Of a stretch of DNA of 64,000 nucleotides, positions 6,085 to 51,802 are shown one piece after another. The position numbers were made by a program, and so were the translations under genes. The stretch is from Psammoneis japonica (lineage: Eukaryota): NCBI GenBank assembly GCA_008632985.1, contig QPGO01000026.1:1-64000 (forward strand), read 5' to 3'. The notes beneath the pieces are model-generated. The model ran no database searches. It worked only from the letters and a program-made list of their open reading frames with translations, and was not told where the DNA came from. Position 1 is the first letter of the stretch. Every line of letters starts with the position of its first letter.

Positions 6085-6096
6085 GTGGCAGGAGTG

Positions 6097-6464: not shown

Positions 6465-6627
6465 CTCAATGAACAGACCAACCTGACAAATCAGTGTTTG
6501 GAGCTTGTCTTTTGGATGCAAAGAGCACACAACATGTTTGGATGACTTGCTTGAACTGTTTTGGGGGGGGGGGGCGATGGGAGACATTGAATTGCATGTG
6601 GCTTGGGTGGGAAAATCTTTACTTTAA

Positions 6628-13640: not shown

Positions 13641-14942
13641 TGTCAGCACTGAGCCAATGACACACCAATTTCCAGCACCATCTGTTTCTTGTTTTGTGAG
13701 GCATTGCTTGAAGTGATTTTGTGCTGCGTGGTGTTGCTTGGAGGGGATTTGTGTGGCGTGGCAGTGCTTGCAGGAGGAGAGAGTGAAGGTTGCATTGACG
13801 GCAATGGCGTGACTGCATTTGCTGCTTCAGAATCATCTTCATGATCTTGTTTCTTGGTTTCCCTGGCCTCAGAAAAAGCACTGGATCACACCGGTGCACA
13901 CAAGCACCCTTAAACTGCTTTTGCTGGCACAACTCCTCAGAAACTGATGCAATGTCAAACACCCTGTTGGAAAAGGATGAATCAACAAAAGGCCCTGGCA
14001 TTTGGCAATCAACTTCGGAAGCGGGCTCCCAGGTCAAAGAAGCATTCGTGAGAGATGTGGTCTCCTTGAGAACCTTCATGTTGCTCTCTTGGCATGATTT
14101 GTTGAATTCAATCATGCCATGGGTGTTTCTTTGCTGAGCCTCCAGCATGAGATCTTGAAGCTTGTTTTGGGAGTCATCACCCATTTCAAGCAAGAACCTT
14201 GTTTTGGGTGTCTTCGGCTGTTTCATGAATCATCTTTGAACTGTTCTGGAAGAGTTCTTTGTTCTGTGCCTGCATTTCACCTCTCATTTTCTCACTTTGC
14301 TCTGAGTTGTGATTCAACACTTGCGTGAGCATGGCGTGGACAAAGGATTCATGATGCTGCCAAGGAGGGGTGTCTCTTCCTCCACCAAAGTCCAAGGCAC
14401 ACACCGCCTGAGGAGTGCCTGGCACAGGGCTGGGTGAGACCCGTTGAATTTGGACAAGAGTGCTGGGTGCACTGCAAGGTGAAGAAGCAAACATGATGGG
14501 GGGCTGACGAGAAAAGTGGCAAACATGATGGGGGACTGACAAGCTGCCAGTGCACTGCAAGGAGAAGCAGCAAACATGATGGGGGGCTGATGAGCTGCTT
14601 GTTCTTCCATCTCTTTGCGGGTGCATTTTTCAACTTTTTTTCTTCTTGTGGCATCAAAGATCTGAGGTGCAACAGGAGTTTTTTTTTGTGTTCCTTTGCT
14701 TGGCCTTCTTGGCTTCCTCTGACTTGCAGGCTGCCAGAACTTCCTCTGAAGGCTGAGATGGAGGGAGGGGATGCAGAGAATCAAGCTCAGCTTTCACACA
14801 TTGTTGGGCAATCAACACATTGCTCTGCATCAACGTGTTGCTCCTTTGACTGACGGTGGATGCCGCCAAAGTGTCACTGTCGCAATGTGCGTTCATGACA
14901 GCGAGAATAATGAATGTGACGAAAGCAGCAAATGATGACAAC

Positions 14943-15218: not shown

Positions 15219-17296
15219 CTCAGATCAGACAAAACGAGGAGGAACGGCGGGGCAACATTGCAGGACAATGCAAACAAGTTGACATTGCCTTCACTTCCTG
15301 AGCGAAGGTCGCAAAGACTGATGGCCATCTGTTGGTTCTTGGAACGGTTGCCACACTGGGCTGCTGCCAGAAAAGCAGAGCAGCACTCGTGCAGGGTGGC
15401 GTGGCGTTTGCACGACTCGGGGAACAGAGCAAGCATGAGTTCAAAGGCACAAGCGGTGGTCTTGTGTTCCACCAATCCGATTGCAAGCTCAGCTGCATCT
15501 CCTGAGAGACTGATCCAATTGGAGAAATGAGTCTCAAGGTGCAAGCCTTCGGGGATCGGATTGGAGCAAGGCATCTTGTGGTGCAAGGCTGCAGATGTCT
15601 GATTGGGGCAACCAGTTCCGTGCTGCAAGACTTCTGGGATCCAAAAGGACTTGCCAGTCTTGTGACATGAGTCTTCGGGGATCCAATCAGGAGGCCAAGT
15701 CTTGAGGTGCGAGACTTGGGGGATCCAATCAGGAGGCCGAGTCTCGAGGCACGAGACTTGAGGCATCCAATCAGGAGGCCCAGTCTCAAGGTACGAGACT
15801 TGGGACATCCAATCAGGAGACCTGGTCTCGAGGTGCGAGACTTGGGGCATCCAATCAGGAGGCCCAGTCTCGAGGTGCGAGACTTGGGGGATCCAACCAG
15901 GAGGCCCAGTCTTGAGGCACGAGACTTGAGGCATCCAATCAGGAGGCCTGGTCTCGAGGTACGAGACTTGGGGCATCCAATCAGGAGGCCCAGTCTCAAG
16001 GTACGAGACTTGGGGGATCCAACCAGGAGGCCCAGTCTCGAGACACGAGACTTGGGGTATCCAATCAGGAGGCCCAGTCTCGAGGTGCGAGACTTGGGGG
16101 ATCCAACCAGGAGGCCCAGTCTCGAGGCACGAGACGTGGAGAGTCCAGTTGGGAGGCCTGGTCTCAAGGCACGAGACTTGGAGCATCCAATCAGGAGGCC
16201 CAGTTTCGATGTACGAGACTTGAGGGATCCAATCCGGAGGCCTGGTCTCGAGGTACGAGACTTGGGGCATCCAGTCAGGAGGCCTGGTCTCGAGGTACAA
16301 GACTTGAGGAATCCAACCAGGAGGCCCAGTCTCGAGGCACGAGACTTGAGGCATCCAGTCAGGAGGCCCAGTCTCAAGGCACGAGACTTGAGGCATCCAA
16401 TCCGGAGGCCCAGTCTCGAGGCACGAGACTTGAGGCATCCAATCCGGAGGCCTCGTCTCGTGGTGCGATGCTTGGAGGATCCAAAGACAACGAAGCTGCT
16501 TGGGTGTCCTGAACTCCCCATCTGATGAACCGGTTGAACTGTTGTGAACAGATTCAATGATGGGAAAAGGAGGCTCCCCATCAGGAGATACGAGAAGCAA
16601 GTTGTCATCTCCATCACTTCCCAAACGAAGGTCGTGAAGGGTGACAGCGGTGGACACGTGGAGGTCGGCAGCACATGGTTTGCGGGGTGCAAAGGCTGCG
16701 GCTTTGCAAGCCATGGGTGGAGTGCCCCAACTGGTTTCGAAGTGCGGGCCTGCGCAAGGGCTGCAATCCTGCACTGGGCCGAGTTTGCTTGCGGGCGGGT
16801 TGGTCAAGACATGCGGGGCGCGACTGACACCACTTCTTGGGGACACCTGAGTGGTGGCACAGTGCAAGGCTGGTGTCAAAATGGTGCTGGGTTCACCTGG
16901 TTTGGATGGCAAGGGACTCGGCACAGGTGCGGAGGGTGCTGCACCAGTGGCTGGAGAGGTCAAGCAGTCCGGGCCAAGGCGATGGTCGCGAAATTCCTCG
17001 GGTGTGAGCAACTGGGGTTCATTGGTCACATCATCACCGTTGCAAACTTTGACAAAGTAGAAGCTGATCAAAGCTGCCAGGAGGTTTCTGTAGGTCCATG
17101 GCAAAGGAACTACATTGGCGCCGTCTCTGTAAGTGAGGGCATCAATTTGGGTGGGTGAGAATGTGAACAATTCCTCACACGATTCAATCCCATTGATGGA
17201 CAGGGCAGAACGAAGAGGGCTGTCATCGTCTTGATTGAGCACAGTGCCTAGAATGCATTTGAAGCTTTCGGTTTGTTGCTGTCGCGTGAGAACCAT
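15206..17296 (-). CDS. copia gag-like N-terminus fused to a 14-aa repeat tract
   Basis: ATG at 17296 (MVLTRQQQTESFKCILGTVLNQDDDSPLRSALSINGIES...LTPEEF) resembles diatom copia gag starts; then ~19 x S[YCH]LETGPPDW[MI]PQV; no pol motifs. Confidence 0.55.
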   Translation of the reverse strand: MVLTRQQQTESFKCILGTVLNQDDDSPLRSALSINGIESCEELFTFSPTQIDALTYRDGANVVPLPWTYRNLLAALISFYFVKVCNGDDVTNEPQLLTPEEFRDHRLGPDCLTSPATGAAPSAPVPSPLPSKPGEPSTILTPALHCATTQVSPRSGVSRAPHVLTNPPASKLGPVQDCSPCAGPHFETSWGTPPMACKAAAFAPRKPCAADLHVSTAVTLHDLRLGSDGDDNLLLVSPDGEPPFPIIESVHNSSTGSSDGEFRTPKQLRCLWILQASHHETRPPDWMPQVSCLETGPPDWMPQVSCLETGPPDWMPQVSCLETGPPGWIPQVLYLETRPPDWMPQVSYLETRPPDWIPQVSYIETGPPDWMLQVSCLETRPPNWTLHVSCLETGPPGWIPQVSHLETGPPDWIPQVSCLETGPPGWIPQVSYLETGPPDWMPQVSYLETRPPDWMPQVSCLKTGPPGWIPQVSHLETGPPDWMPQVSHLETRSPDWMSQVSYLETGPPDWMPQVSCLETRPPDWIPQVSHLKTWPPDWIPEDSCHKTGKSFWIPEVLQHGTGCPNQTSAALHHKMPCSNPIPEGLHLETHFSNWISLSGDAAELAIGLVEHKTTACAFELMLALFPESCKRHATLHECCSAFLAAAQCGNRSKNQQMAISLCDLRSGSEGNVNLFALSCNVAPPFLLVLSDLSDRN
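15678..16460. repeat. 42-bp minisatellite, ~19 units, each with a 7-bp hairpin
   Basis: Unit ~ atccaatcaggaggcccagtctcgaggtacgagacttggggc; period 42 (atcc at 15681 and 15723); AGTCTCG-n5-CGAGACT inverted repeat; no unique spacers. Confidence 0.95.
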
Positions 17297-19642: not shown

Positions 19643-19755
19643 NNNNNNNNNNNNNNNNNNNNNNNNNNNNNNNNNNNNNNNNNNNNNNNNNNNNNNNNNN
19701 NNNNNNNNNNNNNNNNNNNNNNNNNNNNNNNNNNNNNNNNNNNNNNNNNNNNNNN
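19643..19755. other. assembly gap
   Basis: run of N. Confidence 1.
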
Positions 19756-29846: not shown

Positions 29847-30085
29847 TGTTGCAACCCATCCTTCTGGTGGCTGTTCCAGAGCCACCTCAGTCCTCCAAGG
29901 TCTGATCCTGAGGCCAAAATGGACAAGCTTGTTGTCACAATGCTTTCCAAGAGTTAAAAGAGAACAGTGGCTGCTTCCATCGGCTGTTTTTGTTGCTTCA
30001 CGTGGAGCACATGAGTGCTGACGCATGCGTCTTCTTCACACCATTTAATTTTGGTGTTTGAACTTTTAGCTCACCATTTCCAACA
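29847..30085 (-). repeat. LTR A (3' LTR)
   Basis: TGTTG...CAACA; minus-strand PPT-like cagcaggagtg adjacent. Confidence 0.92.
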
Positions 30086-33000
30086 CACTCCTGCTGACCA
30101 ATGACAAGATTCTTGCCATTTCCAAATTTGACCATCTTGGGCACTTGGATGTTCATGATGGCTTGATGATCAACAATGAACTTTTTACCAACCACTGGTT
30201 TGGTCGTGCAATCTGCCATCATCTTGTCTGTTGGGCAGAACTTGATCTCAAGTTCTCCTCGCTTGATGAGGTCAGCGATGCAAAAACACTTGATGTTGAA
30301 ATGTCTCGTGCGTTTGCCCGAGCTGGCCTTTCCATTTTGTTCCAGTTTCACGCAACTTTGGTTGTCTCGATGCATGATGTTGCGCTCGACTTCAAAACCT
30401 TGAGCTTCAACAAAACGCTTGGTCCAAAGGACCTTTGCCAAAACGTCGTCTCCTGCGACGATCTCTGCTTCTGCAGAACTCCTGGTGTTGATCTTCTGCT
30501 TCGTGCTGACTGATGTGATGACACCTTTTCCAAGGGTCATGGCAGAACCTGTGTGACTTTTATGGTCCGGATGGACTGTGAATGCGGCATCCGTGTGCCA
30601 CTCGATGATGACTTTGTCTCCAGCCGACATGACTGCGACATCAAGCTGGGTTGTCCTGAGGAAATTCATGAGCCTCGCCAGCTTTGGCCAATCCGATTTG
30701 TTCGGATCCTTGACCCTGGTGGAGAGAAAAGCAGTGCCAGGCTGAATGTCCTGTCTGGCTCTCTTGCACACAAACATGCCCTTCATCACAAAAGTGCAAA
30801 ATGCTCGAGCACGCTTGAGATCTAATTTCTTGGCTGTCTCATCCACCTTGTTGAGCTTCTTGCTCCACGGGCAATCCACGTCACCCGACAATTCTTCTGG
30901 GAATTCCTTGAAGAACTCCTTGGCCATTCCTTGCACACAAAGCACCATGTCAACTTGCAGTGCTCCTGGAATGGAGCAATCTAGAGTCATGGCCAGACAG
31001 TCGTGCCTCTTTCCACGCGTGACTTTGACCTTTCCGATCTCATCCGCATGAGTTTTGTCTAACCAAATCTTGAATTCATCGTTGACCTTGCTGTCAACGT
31101 GACTGGACTTCAAATCATCCACATGCCATGTCACCGTGTGTTGTTTTCCATTCACGATGCGGTTGGCGACACATGGATCACAAGGATCAATCTCAAATCC
31201 AATTCCTTCGATGTCTCTGCGGAACTTCTTGTGACAAAGAATGGAGGACACCAGCACTCCGCAGAGCGCCTTCAACATTTCAGCGTAGAGAACCTTGTGT
31301 TTGCCTTCACACACGATGCAGTCCTGGCAAGTGTCTGGATCCAATTCCAGCAACATGTCCACCATCCTTCCACGGATCTTCATGATGATCTTTTCATCCT
31401 TGACCTCGATGTCCGTTTGCACAAATGCGCTCGGGATGTCCGCTGTCACAACGTCTCTGCCTTGCTTGGCATCAATCACTCCTGCAATGAGAACAGATTC
31501 TGTGGATGCTGTCGGACTGGCGGTTTCGTCTTGGTCCATGTGCTCTCGCTGCGTGCTTCCGTTTGCACACAACCTTGACTTGATTCGTCCATCTCTCTTC
31601 TCTGTGAGAAACATGAGGCTCTCCATGGCTCTCTTCCTCTCCAGAGGAGTCATGTCATTGATGTGAATGGGTTTGAAAACCACTCTGTCATGGATTTGCT
31701 TCAGCTCTGACACTGCTGACTTGTGGCCTTCTTCTCCAAACTTCTGGAGTCCTCGTGCCAAGCTGCAAGTCTGAACAAATTGATGTGCTTCTTCATCAGT
31801 GGAAATCGTGCTAACCTTCTCGTTCCACTGACACATTGTCGTGGCCATGATTCTGGCCGTTTCTAAGCTGCACTCTTCTTTTGTGAATGAGCTTGAGTCT
31901 GTAGATGGCATTGGCAGTCTCCCAATCTAACTGGAGGTTTCAGAGTCCTTCCTGCCCTGGATGTAGCAACAGGCTCTTCTTGGACACTTTCTTCGGTTTC
32001 ACTCTGCTCCTCTCCAGATTCGTCATCAGATTCCAGGTCTTTCATTTCGCCGATGATCTCTTGCACTTCCGGAGAGTGTTCCTTCTCTTGTTCCAGCCTC
32101 TGTTGTTCATCAATGTGGTCAATCATGTCGTCGATTTCTTGTGAAATTCCGCTGCTGTCTGATGGTTGAGAACCAACTTCGTCATTGTCTCTGAGATGCT
32201 CATCATTGGAGGTTTCTTCTTGAGTCTCGTCTTGTTCTTCACTGATGTGGCTGGCTTCTTCATCCAATTCTTGTTCTCGAATTGTGTCTTGCAGCTCTTG
32301 ACTAACTCTGTCACAGTCTCCCCAGTCTGGCTCTTCTTCCTCATTGTCTTCAGTTTCAATGTCTTCTTCTAGATCACAGTCTTCGTCTTCAAATTGATCT
32401 TCAGCATGGTCCACTCCTGCAAGCCAAGCACTGTCGTACAAAACAGCTCCAGCACACTTCTGAATCTTGAGACCGTTGGGCATCTTGTTCATTTCAGCCA
32501 AACGATGAACCTGCTTTGTGATGGCGGGAGTGATGGGCACAGGGGTGACCTTGCGATGAGTGATCTTCTTGCCGGTTTGCAAGTGCAGCAACTCATGTCC
32601 AATCTGGTTGCTGTCGGTGGGGCGCAAATGAATGCAATCCAAGGTCCGTGACTCTTGGGTGTTCTTGGGGTCCGGGTCATTGTGAGCTTGCACACAAGTG
32701 CCGGACGTGATCTTGCAGCTCTTGTCACAGTCTAGATTCTTTTGATGGAGAATCATTCTCGGACTGCAATGTTTGGAAACGCCGTGCTTGGCTGGAAAAT
32801 AATTGAGCTTCTTAGCAGCTTCAGTGACCATGACTTCGACCATGAGTTTTGGCAGATGCTTGAATGGCAGCCAATGATGGACTGCCCTGGCACGTTCTTG
32901 AATGACTCGGTTGTTTCTTTCGGCTTCTGGGACATGCTCCTGAGCATTTGCGTAGTTCATCTTTAGATCAAACTTGTCTTCTAGTGCATTCCCAATGGGC

Positions 33001-35260
33001 CTGAATTCGTTGTCGCAACGAATGCGTGTGACCTTCAAATCGGCCTTGTTGCAGACTTGCAGCACATCTTCCAGAGCTTCTTGATGAGTTGGTTGGGTCA
33101 AGTCCTTGAGCGGTTGTGCCTTGCGATAAAAAATGTTTCGTGACACTGTGGTGAGGAATGGCAATCCATTCACCTTGAGGCCGTCCAGGCAAAGAGTGAC
33201 CTTGTGCTGTGCTGCAATGAGCTCCTTCGGGATCTCCACACAGTCTTCCACAACTGGCTCCAGCTTCTGCCTTGTGACCTTGCCTTTTAGACTTCCAATG
33301 TCTGGTCCAAAAATCTTCTCGGCCAAATCTACATCCTCCGTTGTGACGGGATTGTTCTTGATGCTGTTCACGCAAATGATGGCCTTCAGATCATTCACGG
33401 TTGGGTTTCCCAATGCGCGCAACAATTCCCCAGCCCTCTTGGCTTTCTTGAACTGTCGTGGAGTGCAGAACTTCTTGTTCTCTTCCACACTCTGCACAAA
33501 TTGGAGCTGAGTTCCAGTGTCATTTATCTTGGGCTTGTAAACGTGCAGCCCTTTTCCATCCTCCTCGAACCCAACCTTCTTGTTGGGGAGATGAGCGGTG
33601 AATGCGTTGTCTTGTTTAGAATCACTTGTGATTCTGTGTTTCTTCTTCATGTCAGAGTGAGCAAAAATGTTGGTGATTGCATCTGGGTCAAACCAAGTCT
33701 CGCCAAACCCTGGCACCATGGCCTTGTGTGTCGTGACCAGGACTCCGCTGTTGGTGTGCAAACGCATGGCTTCATCCGACGGAGGATGTCTGTGATGAGC
33801 TTCTCATTGCAGAAGATTGTGGTTGTTGTGGTTGTTGTGGTTGTGGACTGGTTGTCCAACAAAATCCAGTCTCTCATGCTGCCAGATTGATCCTGGTAGA
33901 GAGACACATCGATGTGCATGCCAGCCCATCCTGAAACAGTGGATTTTGTTCCAGTGGATTCTTTGGTGGAAGAGTTGGCTGCACTGGCATCGTCACTTGG
34001 CTGAGCATTGCTTGCTTCTTGCTCAGCTTTGGCCTTGTTGATGGCCCATTCTGCTTGAGGTTTTCCTTGCCTTTCCCAGCACTTGTTGGAATTGTGTCTG
34101 GCCTTGCCACAGCAGCAACACTTGCCTTCTAACTGAGCGAAGGACAGCGTGATTTCTTGGTTTTCTTCTTGTTTCTTGGAGTCAGAGTTGTTGTTTCGAT
34201 TGTTCCTGTTGCAGCAGTTGTCAGGCTGACCAACGTAGTCAAAAGTGTGGTTGCTCAACACCGTGTTGGCTTCCGCAACAGACTTGGGATGTCAGTCGTT
34301 CTTGAGGGACTGCTGAGTGTTCAATCCTGTTAGAATTGATCCGCACTTGCACTGGTCTGCGTTCTCCAAGTGCGCGCAACCCATCAATTGGCTGAGCGCC
34401 TTTTCTTGACACTTCTTGATGGAATCCGCATTGTGCTCATCGCATTCTGACATGCCTTGCACTGCCTTGGTGAGGACAATTGGTCCTCCAACATGAGACT
34501 TCATGATGTCCCTTGCAACCCTGAATCTCTTGGCACAATCTTGGAGACTCTCCTTCTCCTTCTGCTTGGTTTCCAGCACCGCTCTCATTGAATCTGAGAT
34601 GACAGCCATGTCACACCTGTGCTCTTGGCAGTTCAATGCATGCTCCTTAATGGCCTTGAGCAATTCAATGGGATTGTTTTCAATTTTGGTTTGGAACTCG
34701 GTTCTTGCTTGAATCTTGTTCTTCATGGCCTTGGAGCATCTCTCCCAGAGCAAAGCACAAGCCTTGATGAGGTTGTTCTCATGAGTTTGGGTCCTCTCAA
34801 TGTGAGCATCAAATTCTGTCTTGAACTCAATTTCACACTGTTTGTTCAATGGCACATCCACCTTGTCATCTCCTCCAGTCAAGCTGACCTGCAAAGTTGG
34901 CTTCTTAGAACTCATGTCACATGGAGTGCAAGTGTTGAGTGCAGCTGCAATGTCACCTCCAAACTCACAAGTCTTCTCAATGTAGTTGATGATGAACTCA
35001 GTGGCAATCTGAAAATCAGATGCTTGCTTGGCACTTCCAACATGGCAGACACAATCATTGATGCCCTTGTGGCTTTGCTTGCCACTCTTGTTTCTCCTTC
35101 CTGAGGGTCCTCTTCCTTGGCTTCTGTTGCCAGTTCCACCTCTGCCTCTTCCACTCATGACAAAAAGGCAAAGCAGCAAAATGTCTCACACACTGTGAGA
35201 ATGACTCTTTTCTTTCTTGCTTTCTTTTCACAGCTCTCAGCTGGATTGTTCTCTTTTGGC
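30086..35260 (-). pseudogene. copia gag-pol copy A, frameshifted
   Basis: ORFs 34292-35179, 33647-34261, 31863-33767, 29998-31911. Confidence 0.92.
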
Positions 35261-35498
35261 TGTTGCAATTTGTCCTTCTGGTGACAGTTCCAGAGCCACC
35301 TCAGTCCTCCAAGGTCTGATCCTGAGGCCAAAATAGACAAGCTTGTTGTCACAATGCTTTCTAAGAGTCAAAAGAGAATGATGACTGCTTCCATCGGCAG
35401 TTTCAGTGCCTCACGCAGAGCACATGAGCGCTGGTGCGTGCGTCTTCTTCGCGCTGTCTAATTTCGGTGTTTGAACTTTTAGCTCGCCATTTCCAACA
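35261..35498 (-). repeat. LTR B (shared central LTR)
   Basis: Aligns with LTR A and C; PPT of copy B on one side, leader of copy A on the other. Confidence 0.92.
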
Positions 35499-38400
35499 CA
35501 CTCCTGCTGACCAATGACAAGATTCTTGCCATTTCCAAATTTGACCATCTTAGGCACTTGGATGTTCATGATGGCTTGACGATCAATGATGAACTTTTTA
35601 CCAACCACTGGTTTGGTCATGTGGTCTGCCATCATCTTGTCTGTTGGGCAGAACTTAATCTCAAGTTCTCCTTGCTTGATGAGATCAGTGATGTAAAAAT
35701 GCTTGATGTTGAAATGTCTCGTGCATTTGCCCGAGCTGGCCTTTCCATTTTGTTCTAGTTTCATGCAACTTTGGTTGTCTTGATGCATGATGTTGCGCTT
35801 GACTTCAAAACCTTGAGCTTCAACAAAACGCTTGGTCCAAAGGACCTTTGCCAAAACGTCGTCTCCTGTGACGATCTCTGCTTCTGTAGAACTCCTGGTG
35901 TTGATTTTCTGCTTCGCACTGACTGATGTAACAACACCTTTTCCAAGGGTCATGGCAGAACCTGTGTGACTTTTGTGGTCCGGATGGACTGCAAATGCGG
36001 CGTCCGTGTGCCACTTGATGATGACTTTGTCTCCAGCCGACATGACTGCGACATGACTGCGACATCAAGCTGGGTTGTCCTGAGGAAATTCATGAGCCTC
36101 GCCAGCTTTGGCCAACCCAATTTGTTCGGATCCTTGACCCTGGTGGAGAGAAAAGCAACGCCAGGCTGAATGTCCTTTCTGGCTCTCTTGCACACAAACA
36201 TGCCCTTCATCACAAAAGTGCAAAATGCTTGAGCACGCTTGAGATCTAATTTCTTGGCTGTCTCATCCACCTTGTTGAGCTTCTTGCTCCACGGGCAATT
36301 CACGTCGCCCGACAATTCTTCTGGGAATTCTTTGAAGAACTCCTTGGCCATTCCTTGCACACAAAGCACCATGTCAACTTGCAGTGCTCCTGGAATTGAG
36401 CAATCCAGAGTCATGGCTAGACAGTCGTGCCTCTTTCCACGCGTGACTTTGACCTTTCCGATCTCATCCACGTGAGTTTTGTCCAACCAAATCTTGAATT
36501 CATCGTTGACCTTGCTGTCAACATGGCTAGACTTCAAATCGTCCACATGCCATGTCACCGTGTGTTGTTTTCCATTCACGATGCGGTTGGCGACACATGG
36601 ATCATGAGGATTGATCTCAAATCCGATTCCTTCGATGTCTCTGCGGAACTTCTTGCAATGAAGAATGGAGGACACCAGCATTCCGCAGAGCGCCTTCAAC
36701 ATTTCAACACAGAGAACCTTGTGTTTGCCTTCGCACACAATGTAGTCCTGGCAAGTGTCTGGATCCAATTCCAGCAACATGTCCACCATCCTTCCACGGA
36801 TCTTCATGATGATCTTTTCATCCTTGACCTCGATGTCCGTTTGCACAAATGCGCTCGGGATGTCCGCTGTCACAACGTCTCTGCCTTGCTTGGCATCAAT
36901 CACTCCTGCAATGAGAATGGATTCTGTGGATGCTGTCGGACTGGCAGTTTTGTCTCGGTCCATGTGCTCTCGTTGCGTGCTTCCATTTGCACACAACCTT
37001 GACTTGATTTGTCCATCTCTCTTCTCTGTGAGAAACATGAGGCTCTCCATGGCTCTCTTCCTCTCCAGAGGAGTCATGTCATTGATGTGAATGGGTTTGA
37101 AAACCACTCTGTCATGGATTTGCTTCAGCTCTGACACTGCCGACTTGTGGCCTTCTTCTCCAAACTTCTGGAGTCCTTGTGCCAAGCTGCAAGTCTGAAC
37201 AAATTGATGTGCTTCTTCATCAGTGGAAATCGTGCTGACCTTCTCGTTCCACTGACACATTGTCATGGCCATGATTCTGGCCGTTTCTAAGCTGCACTCT
37301 TCTTCTTGTGAATGAGCTTGAGTCTGTAGATGGCATTGGCAGTCTCCCAATCTAACTGGAGGTTTCAGAGTCCTTCCTGCCCTGGATGTAGCAACAGGCT
37401 CTTCTTGGACACTTTCTTTGGTTTCACTCTGCTCCTCTCCAGATTTGTCATCAGATTCCAGGTCTTTCATTTTGTTGATGATCTCTTGCACTTCCAGAGA
37501 GTGTACCTTCTCTTGTTCCAGCCTCTGTTGTTCATCAATGTGGTCAATCATGTCGTCAATTTCTTGTGAGATTCTGCTGCCGTCTGATGGTTGAGAACCA
37601 ACTTCGTCATTGTCTCCGAGATGCTCATCATTGGAGGTTTCTTCTTGAGTCTCGTCTTGTTCTTCACTGATGTGGCTGGCTTCTTCATCCAATTCTTGTT
37701 CTCAAATTATGTCTTGCAGCTCTTGACTAACTCTGTCACAGTCTCCCCAGTCTGGCTCTTCTTCCTCATTGTCTTCAGTTTCAATGTCTTCTTCTAGATC
37801 ACAGTCTTCGTCTTCAAATTGATCTTCAGCATGGTCCACTCCTGCAAGCCAAGCACTGTCATACAAAACAGCTCCAGCATGCTTCTGAATCTTGAGACCA
37901 TTGGGCATCTTGTTCATTTCAGCCAAACAATGAACCTGCTTTGTGATGGCGGGAGTGATGGGCACAGGGGTGACCTTGCGATGAGTGATCTTCTTGCCGG
38001 TTTGCAAGTGCAGCAACTCATGTCCAATCTGGTTGCTGTCGGTGGGGCGCAAATGAATGCAATCCAAGGTCCGTGACTCTTGGGTGTTCTTGGGGTCCGG
38101 GTCATTGTGAGCTTGCACACAAGTGCCGGACGTGATCTTGCAGCTCTTGTCACAGTCTAGATTCTTTTGATGGAGAATCATTCTTGGACTGCAATGTTTG
38201 GAAACGCCGTGCTTGGCTGGAAAATAGTTGAGCTTCTTAGCAGCTTTGGTGACCATGACTTCGACCATGAGTTTTGGCAGATGCTTGAACGGCAGCTGAT
38301 GACAGACTGCCCTGGCACGTTCTTGAATGACTCGGTTGTTTCTTTCGGCTTCTGGGACATGCTCCTGAGCATTTGCGTAGTTCATCTTTAGATCAAACTT

Positions 38401-40669
38401 GTCTTCTAGTGCACCCCCAATGGGCCTGAATTCGTTGTCGCAACGAATGCGTGTGACCTTCAAATCGGCCTTGTTGCAGACTCGCAGCACATCTTCCAGA
38501 GCTTCTTGATGAGTTGGTTGGGTCAAGTCCTTGAGCGGTTGTGCCGTGCAATAAAAAATGTTTCGTGACACTGTGGTGAGGAATGGCAACAAATTCACCT
38601 TGAGGCCGTCCAGGCAAAGAGTGACCTTGTGCTGTGCTGCAATGAGCTCCTTCGGGATCTCCACGCAGTCTTCTACAACTGGCTCCAGCTTCTGCCTTGT
38701 GACCTTGCCTTTTAGACTTCCAATGTCTGGTCCAAAAATCTTCTTGGCCAAATCTACATCCTCCGTTGTGACGGGATTGTTCTTGATGCTGTTCACGCGA
38801 ATGATGGCCTTCAGATCGTTCACGGCTGGGTTTCCCAACACGTGCAACAACTCCCCAGCCCTCTTGGCTTTCTCAAACTGTCGTGGAGTGTAGAACTTCT
38901 TGTTCTCTTCCACACTCTGCACAAATTGGAGCTGAGTTCCAGTGTCATTTATCTTGGGCTTGTAAATGGGCAGCCCTTTTCCATCCTCCTCGAACCCAAC
39001 CTTCTTGTTGGGGAGATGGACGGTGAATGCGCTGTCTTGCTTAGAATCACTTGTGATTCTGTGTTTCTTCTTCATGTCAGAGAAAGCAAAAATGTTGGTG
39101 ATTGCATCTGGGTTGAACCAAGTCTCACCAAACCCAGGCACTGTGGCCTTGTGTGTCATGACTGGGACTCCGCCATTGGTGTGCAAACGCATGGCTTCAT
39201 CCGATGGACAGACGTCTGCAACGAGCTTCTCGTTGCAGAAGATTGTGGTTGTGGACTGGTTGTCCAATAAAATCCAGTCTCTCATGCTGCCAGATTGATC
39301 CTGGCAGAGAGATGCATCGATGTGTGTGCCAGCCCATCCTGAAACAGCAGATTTTGTTCCAGTGGAGTCTTTGGCAGAAGAGTTGGCTCTGCACTGGCAT
39401 TGTCACTCGCCTGAGCGTTGCTTGCTTCTTGCTTAGCCTTGGCCTTGTTGTTGGCCCATTCTGCTTGAGGTTTTCCTTGCCTTTCCCAGCACTTGTTGGA
39501 ATTGTGTCCGGCCTTGCCACAGCAGCAACACTTGCCTTCTAACTGAGTGAAGGACAGCGTGATTTCTTGGTTTTCTTCTTCTTTCTTGGAGCCAGAGTTG
39601 TTGTTTTGATTGTTCCTGTTACGGTGGTTGTCAGGCTGACCAACGCAGTCAAAAGTGTGGTTGCTCAACACCGTGTTGGCTTCCACAATGGACTTGGTGC
39701 ATTGGTTGTTCTTGAGGGACTGCTGAGTGTTCAATCCTGTTAGAATTGATCTGCACTTCCGCTGGTCTGCGTTCTCCAAGTGCATGTAACCCATCAATTG
39801 GCTGAATGCCTTTTCTTGACACTTCTTGACAGAATCCGCATTGTGCTCATCGCATTCTGACATGCCTTGCACTGCCTTGGTGAGGATGATTGGTCCTCCA
39901 ATGTGAGACTTCATGATGTCCCTTGCAACCCTGAATCTCTTGGTGCAATCTTGAAGACTCTCCTTCTCCTTCTGCTTGGTTTCCAGCACCGCTCTCATTG
40001 AATCTGAGATGATGGCCATGTCACACCTGTGCTCTTGGCAGTTCAATGCATGCTCCTTAATGGCCTTGGGCAATTTGACAGGATCGTTTTCAATTTTGGT
40101 TTGGAACTCGGTTCTTGCTTGAATCTTGTTCTTCATGGCCTTGGAGCATCTCTCCCAGAGCAAAGCATGAGCCTTGATGAGGTTGTTCTCATGAGTTTGG
40201 GTCCTCTCAATGTGAGCATCAAATTCTGTCTTGAACTCAATTTCGTGCTGTTTGTTCAATGGCACGTCCACCTTGTCATCTCCAGTTGAGCTGTGACCTG
40301 CAAAGTCGGCTTCTTAGAACTCATGTCACATGGAGTGCAAGTGTTGAGTGCAGTTGCAATGTCATTTCCAAACTCACAAGTCTTCTTAATGCAGTCGATG
40401 ATGAACTCAGTGGCAATCTGAAAATCAGATGCTTGCTTGGCATTTCCAACACAGCAGACACAATCATTGATGCCCTTGTGGCTTTGCTTGCCACTCTTGT
40501 TTCCCCTTCCTAAGGGTCCTCTTCCTTGGCTTCTGTTGCCAGTTCCACCTCTGCCTCTTCCACTCATGACAAAAAGGCAAAGCAGCAAAATGTCTCACAC
40601 ACTGTGAGAATGACTCTTTTCTTTCTTGCTTTCTTTTCACAGCTCTCAGCTGGATTGTTCTCTTTTGGC
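35499..40669 (-). pseudogene. copia gag-pol copy B, frameshifted
   Basis: ORFs 40256-40588, 39282-40271, 37702-39285, 35950-37692, 35411-36043; 11-nt duplication (gacatgactgc) near 36040-36060 shifts frame. Confidence 0.92.
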
Positions 40670-40907
40670 TGTTGCAATTTGTCCTTCTGGTGACAGTTCC
40701 AGAGCCACCTCAGTCCTCTAAGGTCTGATCCTGAGGCTAAAATAGACAAGCTTGTTGTCACAATACTTTCTAAGAGTTTAAAGAGAACAATGACTACTTC
40801 CATTGGCAGTTTCAGTGCCTCACGTAGAGCACATGAGCGCTGACGCATGCGTCTTCTTCACGCTATCTAATTTCGGTGTTTGAACTTTTAATTCACCATT
40901 TCCAACA
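40670..40907 (-). repeat. LTR C (5' LTR)
   Basis: TGTTG...CAACA; retains more TpA than LTR A or B. Confidence 0.92.
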
Positions 40908-42689
40908 CCTTTGCTCCTTTGCTGTTGGAAGAAGGGTTGGACGAATGACTGCCACTTTTCGTGGTCTTTTTCTTGTTGCTTGGTGGCAGGTTGCACCTCC
41001 CACGACCAAGTCACTGTTGGCCTTGTTGGAGCCACCAGCGCCGCTTTTCCTGCGCGGCATGGACCTGGCCTTCTTGGTGGACAACTTGCCAACTGAGTTC
41101 TTTGCAGCAGTCTTCATTGTGGAGGTGTTGAAAGTGATGCCGTGCAACTTGTGAGATTTTCCAGCACCGCTCTTGGCAATGAATTTCTTGTGAGCAGCGG
41201 CAGCGACAGCAGCAATTTGCATGATTTGCAGGTGGGTCTGCTGGGTTCACCCCTGGCCTCACAGTCTTCCTCTTGGTGGCACCCTGAGCAGCACAGGAGG
41301 GTCAAGCTTGCAATTGACAGTGGGAGAGACAAGGGGCAGAGACACCGGCACACTTCATGATGTGCAGCCACCACTTCTTGCATTGCGCGCTGCAGAGGAC
41401 AGTGGGTTGCCGATTGCAGCATGCATGCCAGTTGTTGCAAAAGGACCCAGTTGTCATTGCACAACAGCCAAGCACAGAACAACCAACAAAGTGAGTGAGA
41501 TTTGCACAGTCTTGTGACATTGGCTCAAAATGATGATGGAATTCCGCAAGCATGCATTTCATGTGTGGGGCCAACACAAGTGCACCTCCACTGGGTTTGA
41601 GAGGTGCCTTTGCTTTGCAAAAAGAAAAACATGAGCCTGTCATGAAGGCTTCCCCAGAAACAGCAGGGCTCTTGTGCAGCTGCTTCCTGAAGCCAAAGAA
41701 CCTGATCACCTCCAAGCAAATCTTTGTCTGGAGTGTGGGTTCTGTCTTTAGCAAGTGACTGGTCCAAAGTGTGAAAGAGAGTGCCTCTCAGCAATCCACG
41801 AGTGCAGCTTGCTTGCAGACAAGGAAAACAACACAATGCCAAACAAGCACAAGACACTTGGCAGAAATGCAAGTGCAGGGGCTGACTTTAGGGCCAAGAA
41901 CACAGTGCCAAACAAGCACAAGACACTTGGTGGCAAAACAAGCACAGGGGTTGACTTTGAGACCAAACAGCAGTGCAGTGTGTGCGCAGCCAAAAAGATG
42001 TGTGTTTCCATCATCTGCACTGTGCTTGAGTGCACAGCAGGCCTGCACAGAAGGGGGCAAGCAAAGTGACTCAACACAATGAATCATGGTCCTGTGGAGA
42101 TGGTGCTGGGGCAGCATGCAAGCACAAGTCTTTTTGGTTCAATGCAAGCAGGTGTTGACAGCAGCAGCAAACATCATGTGAGAAAACAGCAACATTCAGA
42201 AAACAACCCTGACATCACACCCAACAACTTCAACTTGGGCTCCAAATGAATCACACACAAGGCACATGATGGTCAGACCCATCATCTCAATGAAAGAGCT
42301 CTCATCTGGATGGCGGCACATCGGACGACAAACTTTGGCAAGAGTGCTGGTGCTGGCCAGCACCCTGTCCATCACAATGATGCAATGTTCCAAACAGAGC
42401 TGTTGGAAATTGGCTCATTGCATCATTGGAAGAGTTGCTGCACAGAGTCAAGGTGCAAAAATGGAGCTTGGAAAGGTCCTTGATGCACCAAGCAGTGATT
42501 TTGCAGTGGGGTTACAGCACAAAAGGAGCCAAGGCAGGACATCAACACCTTGTGCTCACCAGGTGTGTGGATGATTGGGATGTGGGCAAGCACAAGATGT
42601 TGGCTCAGTCACCTGAGCTGCTGCTTGTGGTGGCAATCTGAGAACCTCTCAGAAAGAGGAATGCCAGAGCAGTGCACCAAGACACCATT

Positions 42690-44620
42690 CAATGGAGCAG
42701 CACTGTGAGAAAGCCCAAGGGGGGGCAGTCAGGCACATCTCTGACCACACAAAAGGTGAAGTGCTTGCACCAGATGATGTTGATGAAAAGACCAAGGACA
42801 CCATGTTTGAGGCACTTCAGATTAAACATCTGAGTCAGAGGATTCCAGAGGAAGATCATTTTCACAAGTTTGGTGAGCTGCCCAAACTCCAAGTTGTCGC
42901 CATTGCCAACAGCACCATCAAGACTGTCATGCAAAGACTGTTGGGGAGTGCAGGCCTCAGCAGATCTGATTTTAGCACAGCATCACAGCGGCTTTTCCAC
43001 CACTGTGGAAAGGCCAGCAGAGTGCTTTGAGAAGTGTTGTGCATGTTCACGAGCTTGCTGGCAAACAAATCACCCCCATGGGCCACTTGCCACACACTCA
43101 TGGCAAAGCAACTCACTGCACCAGACAAAAATCCAGGTGTCTGTCTGGTCAACATGGGGGAGGTGTGGCAGCAAGCCGTGGCTGAAGCTGGCTTGATTCA
43201 TGCTGTGAATGTGCTCTGGGGGCAACACAAATTTGAGGATGTCTTTGGATTTCTTTTTGTTGATGCTCCAACAGATTCGATGAAGAGAGTGGGGCCCCAA
43301 TGTTGTGCAATGTTGGGCACCTTTGGCCATCTGGCACTGGGCTCACCTTCAAGAATTGTTGCAAGCATTGGAGCACCCCAATCATCCGAGGACACTTTGG
43401 CAACACCTTTGTGCCATTCAGCAAAGAAGGTGTTACACAGGGCAGTGGCAGCCCCCACTTGGTGCAGCAGCTCATGGACTGAGATGATTTCATCCACTGG
43501 TTTGAGAGATGAGCAAGCATTTCAAAGATGTGCTCACCTCATCTTGGCACACTGACAACTCCACTGCAGCAGGAAAATTTAATGCCCTGCCTGATTTTTT
43601 CTTGATTCTCCAGGCTGAAGGCCCCAAGCATGGGTGCTGCACAGCCAACAGCTCCAAGAACAGCATCTCCTCAGCAGCCCCAAAATGCAACCTGGAAAAT
43701 GCCAGGGTGCACTTTGGGGACCTCGGCTTTGCTGTCAAATCTGGCGGGAGATGGATGATGTGCACATGGCGGCTGGCTGGCACAAGCTGAGTTGTGGACC
43801 TCGGTCATCCAAGGACTCACCAAGGTTGCAGCCCACCACCCCCAGGCAGAAGTCTCTGCAACACCAGTGGCAGCATGTCCACTGCACAGCTGAGGACTGT
43901 GGAGAATCACCAGTGGATGAAGCAGAGCGTGGCACAGCACAAATTTCTTCCAGCGCCAATCAGCAAGACTTTGGTGGTGGATGACAACCCAAGACCAGCC
44001 CCATCTGCCTTTCCAACAAAATTCTTGGGACTCACCATCCCTTGTGCAATGGAGTCTGTGGCTCAAAACTGCAAAGTGAGCACTCTCATGTGCTCACACA
44101 TGACCGACTCACTTCACGGGGCCGCTCCCCCAGCTCTCTTCTGCAGTCCACAAGGACACCATGTGCAAAGTGAACCAAGAAATGGCTGAAAGGAAAGTCA
44201 AAGTGCGTGAGGAGACCCTTGAAATGATCCTCAGGACTCTGCCTTGCCTCAAGGCCAGAGCTGTCAAGCGCAGAACCAAAGCTGGAGCACGGCTGCCTGC
44301 ACGCCCATCGACGCTGAATGGCGCAGAACTCTCAAGCCAAGAGCTCCATGATGCACTCTGTTTGCAGCATGGCAGCACTCCACCAGACCTCCCTGAGCAT
44401 TGTGATGGGTGCGGCCACAAATTCTCCATCAGCCACGCCTTTCAGTGCAAGAAGGGTGGCCCAGAGTCATCTCACGACATGATGAAGTGTGTGACAACCT
44501 TGGCGACCCAATTGGAAAGGCTTGCAAGCCTTCCTGCACATGTGACAAACCTCTGGTCAACCCTCCTGTTGGTCACATCTTGGGAAGCCCAGGCAACTGT
44601 GACAGCTCCTCAGGCAACAC
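42690..44620 (+). mobile_element. decayed non-LTR retrotransposon (RT plus Cys/His motif; CRE/R2-group-like)
   Basis: Fragments across frames: LTAPDKNPGVCLVNMGEVW, GFLFVDA, KEGVTQG, WHTDN (cf. WYADD), GPKHGC (cf. GPxYGY), KFLGLTIP, LNGAELSSQELHDALCLQHG..CDGCG..HAFQCKKGG..SRHDEV. Confidence 0.75.
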
Positions 44621-44959: not shown

Positions 44960-45361
44960 TGTGAGAACATGCATGTGTTCATGTGTCAGCATGCCATCAA
45001 GTCCTGCGTGTGACAACGACCGCTCAGAAACCGCCATCAACCACCATCAACGACTCACCCAATCACAGCTCGAGAAACGAATGAGATCGGAGGTCTTGGG
45101 TTCAAATCGAGAATTGAGCCTCACTTCTTCTTTTCTTTTATGCAATCAAGAACTTCTTGTTCCTGCCAAGTCTTTTCACTGCATTCATCTGTGTTGAGTT
45201 CGGCACAAATGCGGGTCACTTCTCGTTCTTTACAAACTCTTGTTGGTTGTTGAGTGGAGCAGTTTTTGTTCCCACAATTTAGCGGCTGGTCAATTCGCAC
45301 CTCCTGAGTTGTCTGTTGTTGCTGTTTCTGTCTCTGCGGCATAAACTGCCACATGCCCACA
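44960..45361 (+). repeat. 5' LTR (heavily TpA-converted)
   Basis: Aligns to 51414-51802; differences are dominated by TA versus TG/CA. Confidence 0.95.
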
Positions 45362-45450
45362 TGCTTCCTCTGCGCTGTGGAGACCTGACTCAGTTCAAAA
45401 TTGTTGCAGAAACCAGAGCCCAACATCATGGACGCCGAAACGACGACATC

Positions 45451-48400
45451 ATGAACGCCAAACAGATTGCAGCCGTGATTGCTGCAGCCATTCCCGCCGC
45501 CATCCAACCTCTTGTCAATGCCCAGAACAACCCTCCAGCTGGCAACTTCACTTGCTCACCAGCCTCAGCACGTGATGCACTGCTTGACTGCAGTCACCGA
45601 GGCGATGCCAACGCATTCAAGACATCCACTGAACCTCTTCCAACCACGTTCAACACCCAGAAGCCTGACATCCGAGCATTGCTCGATGAACTTCGTACAA
45701 GGTCCAAAGCTTTTGGTTGGAACGACATCCCAACGATCAACGTCAATGAGGGAGTGGCTGACGCCACCGCTGAAAACCGGAACATGCTCACATCCTGCGG
45801 AAACATCACACCGGAACAGATCCGCACGGTGTCCGCTGCTTGCACAAACAGGCAGAATCGTGAAACCCAGAACAACTGTCAGCTGTGCCTGTGCCTTCAC
45901 AACTTGGTGGATGAAGCCACCAAGCAAGTCATGGCCAATGAATCCAAGCAGCACTGCATTGGAGACATGGATTGCAGGGCATTGCACCTCAAAATCCTGC
46001 TCTCGAAGGCCGAGATTGATGCTCGCGCTGCAGCCTCCCATGTCCGCTCCGAGCTCGCATCCCTGGACAAGCACATGGTCGATGCAGCCAACCACGATGT
46101 CAAGGCATTCAACGAGCACGTGAGGGACCGGATCAAATCCCCATCAAGCTGAGGAGAAATGTCCAACGATCTCATCACGAACCCATTTGAGGGACATGCA
46201 GCGTGCACGGACAAGAACTTCACAAAGTGCACGGAGAAAATCAACGACGACTGCGATGATGGAGTCGACATTGCCCGTGAGCAACTCATGATTTGCGCTG
46301 AGAAGAAATGTCAAGCCCTCGTCCTCAACGAAAAGTGGAACGAACCAACCGAGGAACAAGCGCAAATTGTCGCTCTTTGCGCCAAAGTGAACGACCTCCG
46401 GAACCAACGCTCGCGCAAGTCACCCCAGACGCGTTCCAGCCCTAGGTGGGAGCTCGTAGTGCTGACGTGTGACACAAATAATTTTTATCATCCGTGGTAT
46501 GTTTTGCACGTACATTTCGACGTGTGATATTTAATAAAAATTGTCCAGACTCGCTGTTTTGCGAAGCCCCAGACGTTTTACATAACGAATTTATAGAAAC
46601 AATAATGCGCCAGTTACATTCTTCAATGTCTGAAGAATGTAACTGGCTAAGTAAAAAATGATGTACTTCAAAATTGCCTCATTTTCTGTTGGCGAACATT
46701 GACATTTAATTACCGTATAATTTTACTACGGAGCTCGCACGTAGAATTCTACGGGCCCAATGTCACACGGATTCCCACCTACGTCTGGAACGCGTCCCCA
46801 GCGGTCATCGGGCCAGAAACCTTCCAACGCCAGCCAGGCCAAGAAGTCCTCAAGCGCCACCAAATGCAAGAAAGGTGAAAAACCAAAATTTGAAGGAAAA
46901 TGGACTTGGCGCGGCGTCGAACCTCAGCCCGGAGAACCCAAAGTGAAGACCTTTGAGGGAGAAGAATGGAAGTGTTGCGACTTCCACAAGCACTGGGGAC
47001 AGCACTTGAGCAAGGACTGTCATGCCAAACAGAAAGCTGACAACTGGAACTCCGGCAACCCGAACCAGCCGACGTCCGACGCTCTCACCGCTTCCATGGC
47101 AAACATCGGCATCAACGACATGACTGGACAGGCCCAAGGCGAGTGAAGGTGGTGGTCAGGTTTGGAGATGATCTGTGCCACACTGCTTGTTGCACTGTTT
47201 GCGATCTTGGCTTGCACTGATGAAGTTGTGGACACCATTCTGATGAAAGCAATTCCCATCGCAGCCAACGTGATCAGCAGTGCATGTGATCCATTGCACT
47301 CCTTGTCTGACTTAGCCAAGCCCTTCCACGTCAGCCTAAATCCCAAGCCAAGAGTCCGAAGACCTCAGAGTCGGTGCAAGCGAGGCTCCACTTGCCGCCG
47401 CCGACATGTCCGACGCAAACGTGGAGCACGTGTCATGCACAAAGTCGTCGAGGTCCATGTGACCTGTGAACCAGTCATCGGATGCTCCTCCACCACCGAT
47501 GCAGAATGGTGCTCAACCTGCAACAACCACAGCTGTGACGCCAACTCGTTCCTCATTGGCATCGATGACCACGCCTCCCACTGTCTGACCAACTCGATGT
47601 CGGACTTCATCCGGACACCAGCAAAGGTCCACGTCAACGTCAAGGGTGTGTCCGGCAACGCATCGACCTCACACAAAGGAACTGTTTGTTGGCCCATCCA
47701 AGACAACCTCGGACAAACACACAACTTGAATGCACCTGGCGTCTGTTGTGCACCCAACCTCCCGATCCGGCTCCTGTCTCCGCAACATCTGGCTCAAGCT
47801 CTCAAGCCACAAGAGCACACCCAGGAAGGCACTCGTGCTACAACCACGAGCAACCACACTGTCTTAGAGTGGATGGACCGAAAACACACGCGGTTGGTCC
47901 CCCTCAACAAAAGCAATGTTGGTGTCTTTTGCTCCGCCCCTTCTTTTACGTCCCTTCAGGCGTCATGCGAAACATGCGACTGTCGTCGTGACGAAAACTT
48001 TTGTGCATTCCGAGCACACCTCATTCCGCCCGACGATGACACACCCGATGCCACTGTTGCTCACAATCATGCTCCTCCGCCCGACGGGGTCTCGGATCAT
48101 GCCAAGCAACCCACTGTTCCGACTCACACTCCGGTTGACGAAGCACCCGACGATGCAACTAGCCCGAACGAGAAAGCCATCCATGCGGATCAATCAACAC
48201 CTCCGTCCAACCCCAATGCAGTCGAATTCAACCCATCAGAGGACGGATCAGAGGGTGAACAATTCATCAAAAATGAAGAAATCATCACGCCTGCGAATCC
48301 ATCCCACGAACTGCTGCTTTGGCACTGTCGACTCGGTCATCTCCCATTTTCGCGCATGCAAGCTGTGGCTTGCAGTGGAGACCTGCCTCGTCGTCTGTCA

Positions 48401-51386: not shown

Positions 51387-51413
51387 CAACTCGGACATTT
51401 CGGTGTGAAGGAG

Positions 51414-51802
51414 TGTGAGAATATACATATATTCATGTATCAGTGTGCCATCAAGTCCTACGTGTGACAATGACCGCTCAGAAACCGCCATCAACCACCA
51501 TCAACGACTCACCCAATCACAGCTCGAGAAACGAATGAGATCGGAGGTCTTGGGTTCAAATCGAGAATTGAGCCTCACTTCTTCTTTTCTTTTATGCAAT
51601 CAAGAACTTCTCGTTCCTGCTAAGTCTTTTCACTACGTTCTCGGTACAAATACGGGTCACTTCTCGTTCTTTACAAATTCTTGTTGGTTGTCGAGTAGAG
51701 TAGTTTTTGTTCTCACAATTTAGCGACTGGTCAATTCGTACCTCCTAAGTTGTCTATTGTTACTATTTCTATCTCTACGGCGTAAACTACCGTATACCCA
51801 CA
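51414..51802 (+). repeat. 3' LTR (TpA largely retained)
   Basis: tgtgagaatatacatatattc...actaccgtatacccaca. Confidence 0.95.

Follow-up and report, generated by a model that had tools for sequence, protein, structure and literature searches.

It has been reported that giant-virus and virophage DNA integrated in the alga Bigelowiella natans undergoes A>G/T>C hypermutation restricted to TpA, and the same preprint proposes an ADAT2/TadA-like adenine deaminase for it (Mettrop et al., bioRxiv 10.64898/2026.01.13.699255). Here we analysed the TpA sites that remain in a 64-kb stretch of Psammoneis japonica DNA (contig QPGO01000026.1, positions 1 to 64,000; hereafter the window), which contains a hypermutated Ty1/copia-type long terminal repeat (LTR) retrotransposon in two tandem copies, A and B. 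As far as the main text of the preprint describes its case, the two are alike in that almost all changes are A>G and T>C at TpA and give TpG or CpA according to the strand, that foreign or repeat-like DNA alone is affected, and that the long-term outcome is low TpA with high CpA plus TpG. They differ in that B. natans is a chlorarachniophyte in which viral DNA is mutated, whereas the window is diatom-like and the process there strikes LTR retrotransposons and other repeats. This one 2026 preprint, on another alga, is so far the sole report of TpA-specific hypermutation of foreign DNA, and its main text gives no rule beyond the dinucleotide: the words ‘context’, ‘flanking’, ‘trinucleotide’ and ‘tetranucleotide’ do not occur there, and its table of 231 de novo mutations from mutation-accumulation lines (Table S2) may hold the same signal as described below. 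In our search of the literature we found no TpA hypermutation in diatoms and no flank rule.

In repeat-induced point mutation (RIP) of Neurospora and other ascomycetes, duplicated sequence is recognised and C is changed into T, mainly at CpA, which creates TpA. The process in the window is similar in being a heavy, transition-only mutation of one dinucleotide in repeats that kills transposons after insertion; it differs in that TpA is lost by change of A:T to G:C, a direction fixed by the LTR pair of a second retrotransposon, E3, and by tyrosine codons that have become cysteine or histidine codons. TadA and ADAT2-ADAT3 are tRNA adenosine-34 deaminases whose native substrate has U33 before A34; bacterial TadA reads U-A-C and has its optimum at UACG, the tRNA-Arg loop context. 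The strict 5′ T of the window process matches U33-A34.

We consider it likely that the surviving TpA are the leftovers of a TpA-specific A:T-to-G:C hypermutation whose rate is set by the bases 3′ of the adenine on the same strand. An adenine in T-A-Y, most of all in T-A-Y-Y (Y, pyrimidine; R, purine), would be hit at ~2.5-4 times the rate of one in T-A-A for each flank position. Because each TpA carries two adenines, one on each strand, RTAY would be erased first, while YTAR would be the slowest class and dominate the survivors; YTAY and RTAR would be erased mainly on the strand that reads TAY.

Context-dependent survival of TpA in the tandem element and across the window

The whole window holds 869 TpA, with rho values of 0.21 for TA, 1.57 for TG, 1.50 for CA and 0.57 for CpG. 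The retrotransposon forms the following array, in which RT stands for reverse transcriptase and ORF for open reading frame:

29847-30085, minus strand: LTR copy 1 of an LTR-internal-LTR-internal-LTR array, recognised from the repeat copies
30086-35260, minus strand: internal region of tandem copy A of the Ty1/copia-type LTR retrotransposon (gag to RT/RNase H), hypermutated, 5175 nt, recognised from broken ORFs, a weak RVT_2 match and identity to diatom copia proteins
35261-35499, minus strand: LTR copy 2, common to copies A and B, recognised from the repeat copies
35500-40669, minus strand: internal region of tandem copy B, 95.0% identical to A, the paired partner for scoring TA losses
40670-40908, minus strand: LTR copy 3, recognised from the repeat copies

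The three LTR copies are spaced by ~5.41 kb and are 88-90% alike. The ORFs of copy A are four broken pieces, in which Pfam gave a weak RVT_2 match (E=2.3e-8) and no match in the gag, protease and integrase ORFs; this scarcity fits heavy mutation and is uninformative on sequence context. The RT/RNase H ORF has 711 protein matches at E<=1e-3, the top ones at 60-63% identity, and the named top matches come from the diatoms Fragilaria crotonensis, Nitzschia inconspicua and Epithemia.

Copy A (30086-35260) retains 33 TpA, where base composition predicts 328. The surviving tetramers are CTAA and GTAG (7 each), TTAG (6), CTAG (4), TTAT and ATAA (2 each), and TTAC, GTAC, CTAC, GTAA and TTAA (one each); by class, 18 of the 33 are YTAR (55%), 10 RTAR, 4 YTAY and 1 RTAY. 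An earlier note on this DNA, made by eye, had put the survivors at about 30-40, roughly half of them YTAR, with many gtag and almost no RTAY, and the counts bear out each of these points.

As an ancestral baseline, we used 79 RT-relative loci out of 549 confirmed, with the TpA classes read on the coding strand. All 79 are unmutated (rho TpA 0.52-0.91), and their 15,250 TpA divide into 32.8% YTAY, 30.9% RTAY, 19.1% RTAR and 17.2% YTAR. Scaled to 5175 nt, the TpA density of the relatives gives ~236 ancestral TpA, and the estimated coding-strand survival in copy A is 0.44 for YTAR, 0.13 for YTAY, 0.09 for RTAR and 0.014 for RTAY. Relative to the class shares of the relatives, copy A shows an excess of YTAR (binomial p=1.3e-6) and a deficit of RTAY (p=1.05e-4), and the four classes together differ with a chi-square of 35.9 (p=8e-8). 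With independent hazards on the two strands, RTAY survival is predicted as 0.13 x 0.09 / 0.44, or 0.026, close to the estimated 0.014. The earlier note had named two findings that would speak against its claim, survival independent of context once normalised and a skew due to coding constraint. Neither is what we found: survival is still strongly context-dependent after normalisation, and because YTAR is the rarest class in the intact relatives and RTAY among the commonest, coding constraint opposes the observed skew. YTAR, described in that note as resistant, is indeed the slowest class but is not immune, since copy A has lost ~56% of its estimated ancestral YTAR; YTAR sites also make up 13 of the 29 TA losses confined to one tandem copy (classed by their flanks).

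The same skew was observed in the other mutated DNA of the window. Tracts were separated by rho TpA in bins of 400 nt, with <0.2 taken as mutated and >0.4 as unmutated, and the flanks were not used:

Mutated tracts outside the tandem element, 32,846 nt: 106 TpA (YTAR 55, YTAY 28, RTAR 13, RTAY 10)
Unmutated tracts, 11,500 nt: 510 TpA (YTAR 95, YTAY 148, RTAR 133, RTAY 134)
Intermediate tracts: 189 TpA (YTAR 69, YTAY 44, RTAR 44, RTAY 32)

Mutated and unmutated tracts differ in their three strand-symmetric classes with a chi-square of 55.0 (p=1.1e-12), and the intermediate tracts are intermediate in skew (YTAR 69/189). The 106 survivor sites have 12-mers that are all distinct and are present across every mutated tract, with YTAR making up 19/35 of survivors in 0-8 kb, 9/18 in 40-48 kb and 14/21 in 56-64 kb, and context-dependent survival is thus general across the window. 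The mutated tracts cover copia-like elements, including E3 (listed below) and the following:

~400-6500, plus strand: third copia-like element, E1, hypermutated but less saturated, with RVT_2; used for an independent tyrosine-codon check

Hypermutation in the window is restricted to repeat-like DNA, and an apparent host-gene tract is spared. A 1015-aa ORF with N-terminal ankyrin repeats (53447-56494, minus strand) lies mostly in the unmutated tract 51401-55200 and for the rest in DNA not classed as mutated; it is apparently a host gene that was spared by the process, adjoining the mutated E3.

Several further features of the tracts were noted. TpA loss is most extreme (rho 0.02-0.07) at 12001-14000, 42001-44000 and 58001-64000, where CpG loss is also most extreme (rho 0.09-0.41) and TG/CA rho reaches ~1.7-2.0. 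Elsewhere (1-6 kb, 48-50 kb) mutated tracts have retained a CpG rho of 0.8, and CpG and TpA decay are therefore partly uncoupled. A 42-nt unit is repeated in tandem ~26 times at 15486-16583, within long open frames of both strands and in a region where G+C is raised (0.54-0.59), and an assembly gap of 113 N is present at 19643-19755 within a mutated tract.

Mutation after insertion and its restriction to TpA

The direction and timing of the change were read from E3 and from a pair of related segments:

44960-51802, plus strand: E3, a second complete LTR retrotransposon, with TG..CA LTR ends and a 5-bp target duplication, CACGA
44960-45361, plus strand: E3 5′ LTR, 402 nt, hypermutated, 4 TpA left (pair alignment)
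51414-51802, plus strand: E3 3′ LTR, unmutated, 26 TpA, the before-state for the 5′ LTR (pair alignment)
46428-46793, plus strand: unmutated patch in E3, 28 TpA, a before-like partner with 73% identity to 58118-58511
58118-58511, plus strand: mutated relative of 46428-46793, 3 TpA left, with 19 clean TA>TG/CA sites

Of the 26 TpA in the E3 3′ LTR, 16 are TG in the 5′ LTR, 6 are CA and 4 are kept, while the pair contains no site with TA in the 5′ LTR and TG or CA in the 3′ LTR. Because the two LTRs of one insertion start identical, the change occurred in the genome, after insertion. TA>TG/CA accounts for 22 of the 33 substitutions between the two LTRs. A>G affected 22/52 adenines after T, and 1/66 after A, 2/47 after C and 2/59 after G, making it ~28 times rarer after A than after T; C>T at CpG affected 5/38. 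In the second pair (46428-46793 and 58118-58511), which is noisier and has 24 transversions, A>G affected 20/55 adenines after T and 2/71 after A. The mutation is thus restricted to TpA, and the check for AA-to-AG changes that the earlier note had proposed finds AA spared.

The E3 5′ LTR and interior are hypermutated while the homologous 3′ LTR is untouched, and the mutated tract ends at ~51,400, ~400 nt inside the element. A tract edge inside E3 despite the homology of its LTRs argues for a chromatin-like domain boundary and against targeting by homology. In comparison with RIP, that one LTR was mutated with its homologous partner 6.4 kb away untouched also argues against homology as the trigger, yet the tandem copies A and B were both mutated. 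Within the otherwise mutated E3, a patch of 500 nt (46401-46900) has normal TpA density, and 11.7 kb from it lies a diverged, mutated relative; this patch may have been inserted later, once the mutation episode was over.

Tyrosine codons of the tandem element show the same direction. Compared with 120 relatives, the copy A RT ORF has 0.2% Tyr instead of 3.7%, 3.8% Cys instead of 1.2% and 3.1% His instead of 2.6%. We took as conserved those query-anchored BLAST columns with Tyr in >=60% of >=6 aligned relatives (n=34); the rows of the integrase-ORF MAFFT alignment were discarded, most of the 120 homologues lacking the integrase region. At the 34 columns copy A has TGY in 21, CAY in 9, TAY in 1 and other codons in 3, and 19 of its 20 conserved RT tyrosine codons no longer encode Tyr, being mostly Cys or His codons. 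At conserved Tyr codons copies A and B also differ as CA versus TG, with both strands hit.

The alignment of copies A and B contains 268 substitutions, 250 of which are transitions, and its TA sites divide into 27 common to both, 20 in B only and 9 in A only; counted over copy A plus its upstream LTR, 27 of 36 TpA are common to copy B. One copy has CA and the other TG at 45 sites, including several in conserved tyrosine codons, indicating that many TpA took independent hits on opposite strands once the two copies had separated. The alignment of the three LTRs was kept out of all counts, as two-versus-one states are unsafe to polarise when parallel loss is common.

Between A and B, CpG-type differences (86 sites) outnumber the 29 TA-type single losses. 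The copia family of 29847-35499 is multi-copy in the source sample, with 1341 contigs at >=80% likeness that differ from it by transitions at 562 places and by transversions at 117. In other copies CA and TG are exchanged relative to copy A, in both directions, for example at 32872-32873, 34492-34493 and 35043-35044; the 40 of 684 contig differences that were listed are too small a share for reconstruction of ancestral TA, and no counts were drawn from them.

The strand of the mutated adenine and a graded 3′ preference

Survival alone cannot separate a rule of adenine followed by pyrimidine from one of purine before T, because the two mirror each other across the strands. They differ in their products: a 3′-pyrimidine rule gives YTGY from YTAY and RCAR from RTAR, and the opposite rule gives the reversed products. 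We assembled 103 polarised events, to which the E3 LTR pair contributed 22, the second pair 19, single-copy losses in A or B 29 and conserved Tyr codons 33; among the last, A/B states that agreed entered the count a single time, and any site belonging to the 29 was left out. The outcomes as TG/CA are 16/3 for YTAY, 15/31 for RTAR, 11/11 for RTAY and 7/9 for YTAR. YTAY and RTAR differ in outcome with a Fisher odds ratio of 11 (p=2.5e-4), a value partly confounded with strand bias, and a logistic model with a strand term for each of three data sets puts the hazard ratio of a 3′ pyrimidine at 2.27 (likelihood-ratio test, LRT, 6.9, p=0.0086). In the E3 LTR pair alone, all 8 of 8 YTAY sites that were hit became TG.

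The joint negative log-likelihood of survival and outcome is -65.1 for a model with the +1 base only, -53.7 with the -2 base only and -8.4 without context; adding +1 to -2 improves the fit with p=3.8e-7, and adding -2 to +1 with p=0.02. The ratio of products, (YTGY+RCAR)/(YCAY+RTGR), is 1.12-1.50 in 8 of 8 mutated segments. Expected ratios from 60 intact relatives after 90% conversion have a median of 0.97 without a strand rule (2.5-97.5% range 0.78-1.26), and are 1.08-2.04 under the 3′-pyrimidine rule and 0.52-0.86 under the opposite one; the unmutated tracts have a baseline of 1.22, which makes the margin smaller for the non-copia segments. At the conserved Tyr codons of copies A and B together, TGY and CAY number 30 and 11 after a pyrimidine, and 9 and 8 after a purine. 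The 3′ pyrimidine belongs, on evidence of moderate strength, to the strand of the mutated adenine.

The rule is a gradient, with TAYY fastest and TAAA slowest, and not a clean switch between Y and R. In the joint model the hazard ratios at +1, relative to A, are 2.6 for C, 1.4 for G and 3.9 for T. Adding the +2 base, with sites overlapping a second TA excluded, improves the fit further (LRT 52.5, p=2.4e-11) and gives 2.7, 1.5 and 3.1 for C, G and T at +1 and 2.5, 1.7 and 3.1 at +2, whereas positions +3 and +4 have little effect. The preference thus amounts to ~2.3- to 4-fold per strand, YTAR is still hit, and the second downstream base matters as much as the first. The earlier note had proposed T-A-pyrimidine as the target; the strand-of-hit data agree with it, and the definition has to be widened to a graded one in which the +2 base also counts. 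The agent would then read three to four nucleotides of one strand.

The gradient can be seen directly in per-strand views of the other mutated tracts against the unmutated ones, with 48/94 for TAAA, 24/80 for TAGA, 16/56 for TACG and 20/92 for TACA, and 3/62 for TACC, 4/65 for TACT, 3/60 for TATC, 5/107 for TATT and 0/52 for TATA. TACG thus survives better than TACC or TACT (16/56 vs 3/62 and 4/65). The adenine may be shielded by an adjoining CpG, which is possibly methylated, but TACG was readily hit in the two before/after pairs (7/7, 6 of them on the adenine before CG). In E1 (400-6500), which keeps CpG, 9 of 12 surviving TAC views are TACG, compared with ~20% in unmutated DNA.

Several observations weigh against a same-strand 3′ rule or limit its precision. 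The orientation evidence stands at p=0.009 after stratifying, and the concordant A/B states may share ancestry. In E1 the expected trend is weak: its 27 conserved-Tyr codons are now 5 TA, 8 TG, 9 CA and 5 other, with TG 4, CA 3 and TA 3 in YTAY, and TG 4, CA 6 and TA 2 in RTAY. Among 40 A/B sites of CA versus TG with unchanged flanks, 20 are R..R, 9 Y..R, 8 R..Y and 3 Y..Y. Independent hits after the copies split predict R..Y to be richest, and with only 8 of 40 in that class the process needs to have partly predated the duplication; an onset before duplication, with RTAY removed first, would explain these flanks. For the ancestral counts, host-gene tracts or relatives with 40-63% protein identity stand in for the true ancestor, and flanks can themselves be rewritten (TATA to TATG or TACA), which inflates some survivor classes. 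Finally, a fit to outcomes only ranks the +1 bases as C>T>G>A (C 3.7, T 1.65; log SE, standard error, ~0.45), while survival puts T at or above C.

Alternative explanations and candidate agents

The alternative that survives best, though we regard it as unlikely, has the thymine of R-T-A as the target: oxidation to 5-hydroxymethyluracil, for example, or some other modification of T would lead to mispairing with G or to repair to C. A change of T to C at R-T-A is A-to-G at T-A-Y on the other strand, and all the T-A-Y evidence fits equally; in addition, TpA is self-complementary like the CpG sites of DNA-modifying enzymes, and CpG loss accompanies TpA loss in the same tracts. On the other side, the sole published TpA-restricted case proposes adenine deamination, without a test of it in the main text (10.64898/2026.01.13.699255).

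We give less credence still to damage at TpA that is independent of context, with the flank rule arising from repair that favours TAR adenines over TAY. Survival and outcome data record fixed mutations only, in which targeting and repair are inseparable. This explanation needs an extra assumption, and a graded reading of two 3′ positions is typical of single-strand nucleic-acid deaminases.

Two further explanations appear very improbable. In one, the deciding flank would be the base 5′ of the T on the mutated adenine's strand (R-T-A, with A mutated), which the symmetry of survival permits and for which the -2-only model does beat the null (LRT 90.7). The YTAY outcomes (TG 16, CA 3) run opposite to it, the -2-only model is worse than the +1-only model by 11.4 log-likelihood units with an equal number of parameters, and the predicted product ratio of 0.52-0.86 lies below the observed 1.12-1.50. 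In the other, the remaining TpA would have been regenerated from CA or TG by ordinary C-to-T change after the process stopped. With ~6,800 CA/TG in the mutated tracts, back-mutation of 1% would yield tens of TpA, and some A/B differences are possibly gains. However, the CA/TG flanks in these tracts are 23% Y..R and 24% R..Y, and TpA regenerated from them would not be 52% YTAR and 9% RTAY; 27 of 36 TpA are moreover common to A and B, and at best regeneration adds noise for which context-dependent removal is still needed.

We see hardly any room for a skew inherited without context-dependent mutation, from codon or composition constraint or from a family that was always TA-poor. The element is coding and its coding strand is A-rich; against this, the 79 intact relatives show the opposite skew (YTAR 17.2%, RTAY 30.9%), conserved Tyr were lost in copy A (19/20 in RT, 31/34 in the polyprotein), which indicates that selection was not acting, unrelated mutated tracts share the skew, and the E3 LTR pair dates the change to after insertion. 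Error-prone synthesis of the Pol eta kind at WA, or ADAR-type RNA editing before reverse transcription, can as good as be set aside: both make A-to-G changes with a preference for a 5′ T, but WA includes AA, which was spared here (1/66 and 2/71 after A vs 22/52 and 20/55 after T), both strands were hit in the E3 LTR pair (16 TG, 6 CA), for E3 an origin at the RNA or cDNA stage is excluded because the insertion has only one of its two LTRs mutated, and the 3′ G favoured by ADAR2 is not favoured in the window. A 5′ U preference of ADAR is also mentioned in the B. natans preprint (10.64898/2026.01.13.699255).

Returning to hypermutation governed by the bases 3′ of the adenine, the agent would most likely be a TadA/ADAT-type deaminase that attacks adenine in the DNA of silenced repeats, with inosine copied as G. 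This assignment is plausible, and the fingerprint alone cannot establish the enzyme. The earlier note had expected the fingerprint to separate a TadA-like enzyme from Pol eta, and this held on the Pol eta side, where sparing of AA disfavours the polymerase; on the TadA side a 3′ pyrimidine is favoured and C leads the outcome-only fit, but by survival TACG is not the best target. The window process further departs from TadA in that TAT is at least as susceptible as TAC in survival, that a second downstream pyrimidine is favoured, and that the TadA loop sequence TACG outlives TACC and TACT. Among the 17 window ORFs scanned, we found no deaminase ORF with an HxE...PCxxC motif. The engineered ABE8e A48E is described as preferring adenine in a ‘YAC’ context (PMC13109818).

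We tentatively suggest, as a conjecture on which we would not yet rely, that diatoms may possess a natural, repeat-directed DNA adenine editor that reads about four bases of one strand, 5′-T-A-Y-Y-3′, and turns the adenine into a base pairing with G; its fingerprint would set it apart from ADAR, from Pol eta and from bacterial TadA with its UACG optimum.

Sequence data alone cannot decide between adenine and thymine chemistry, nor between targeting and repair. TpA hypermutation itself is already known from the B. natans preprint, as its main text describes it, and what is new here is a quantitative flank fingerprint, the first for a barely described editing system. The graded rule narrows the range of enzymes that could be responsible; it can be compared with candidate deaminases and with published mutation-accumulation data, and Pol eta and RNA editing drop out as candidates. 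The rule could also be used to date or stage mutated elements, with RTAY as early hits and YTAR as late survivors. If an editor of TAYY does exist, the flank rule would serve as a signature for finding the enzyme and for recognising this defence in other eukaryotes, including the chlorarachniophyte case.

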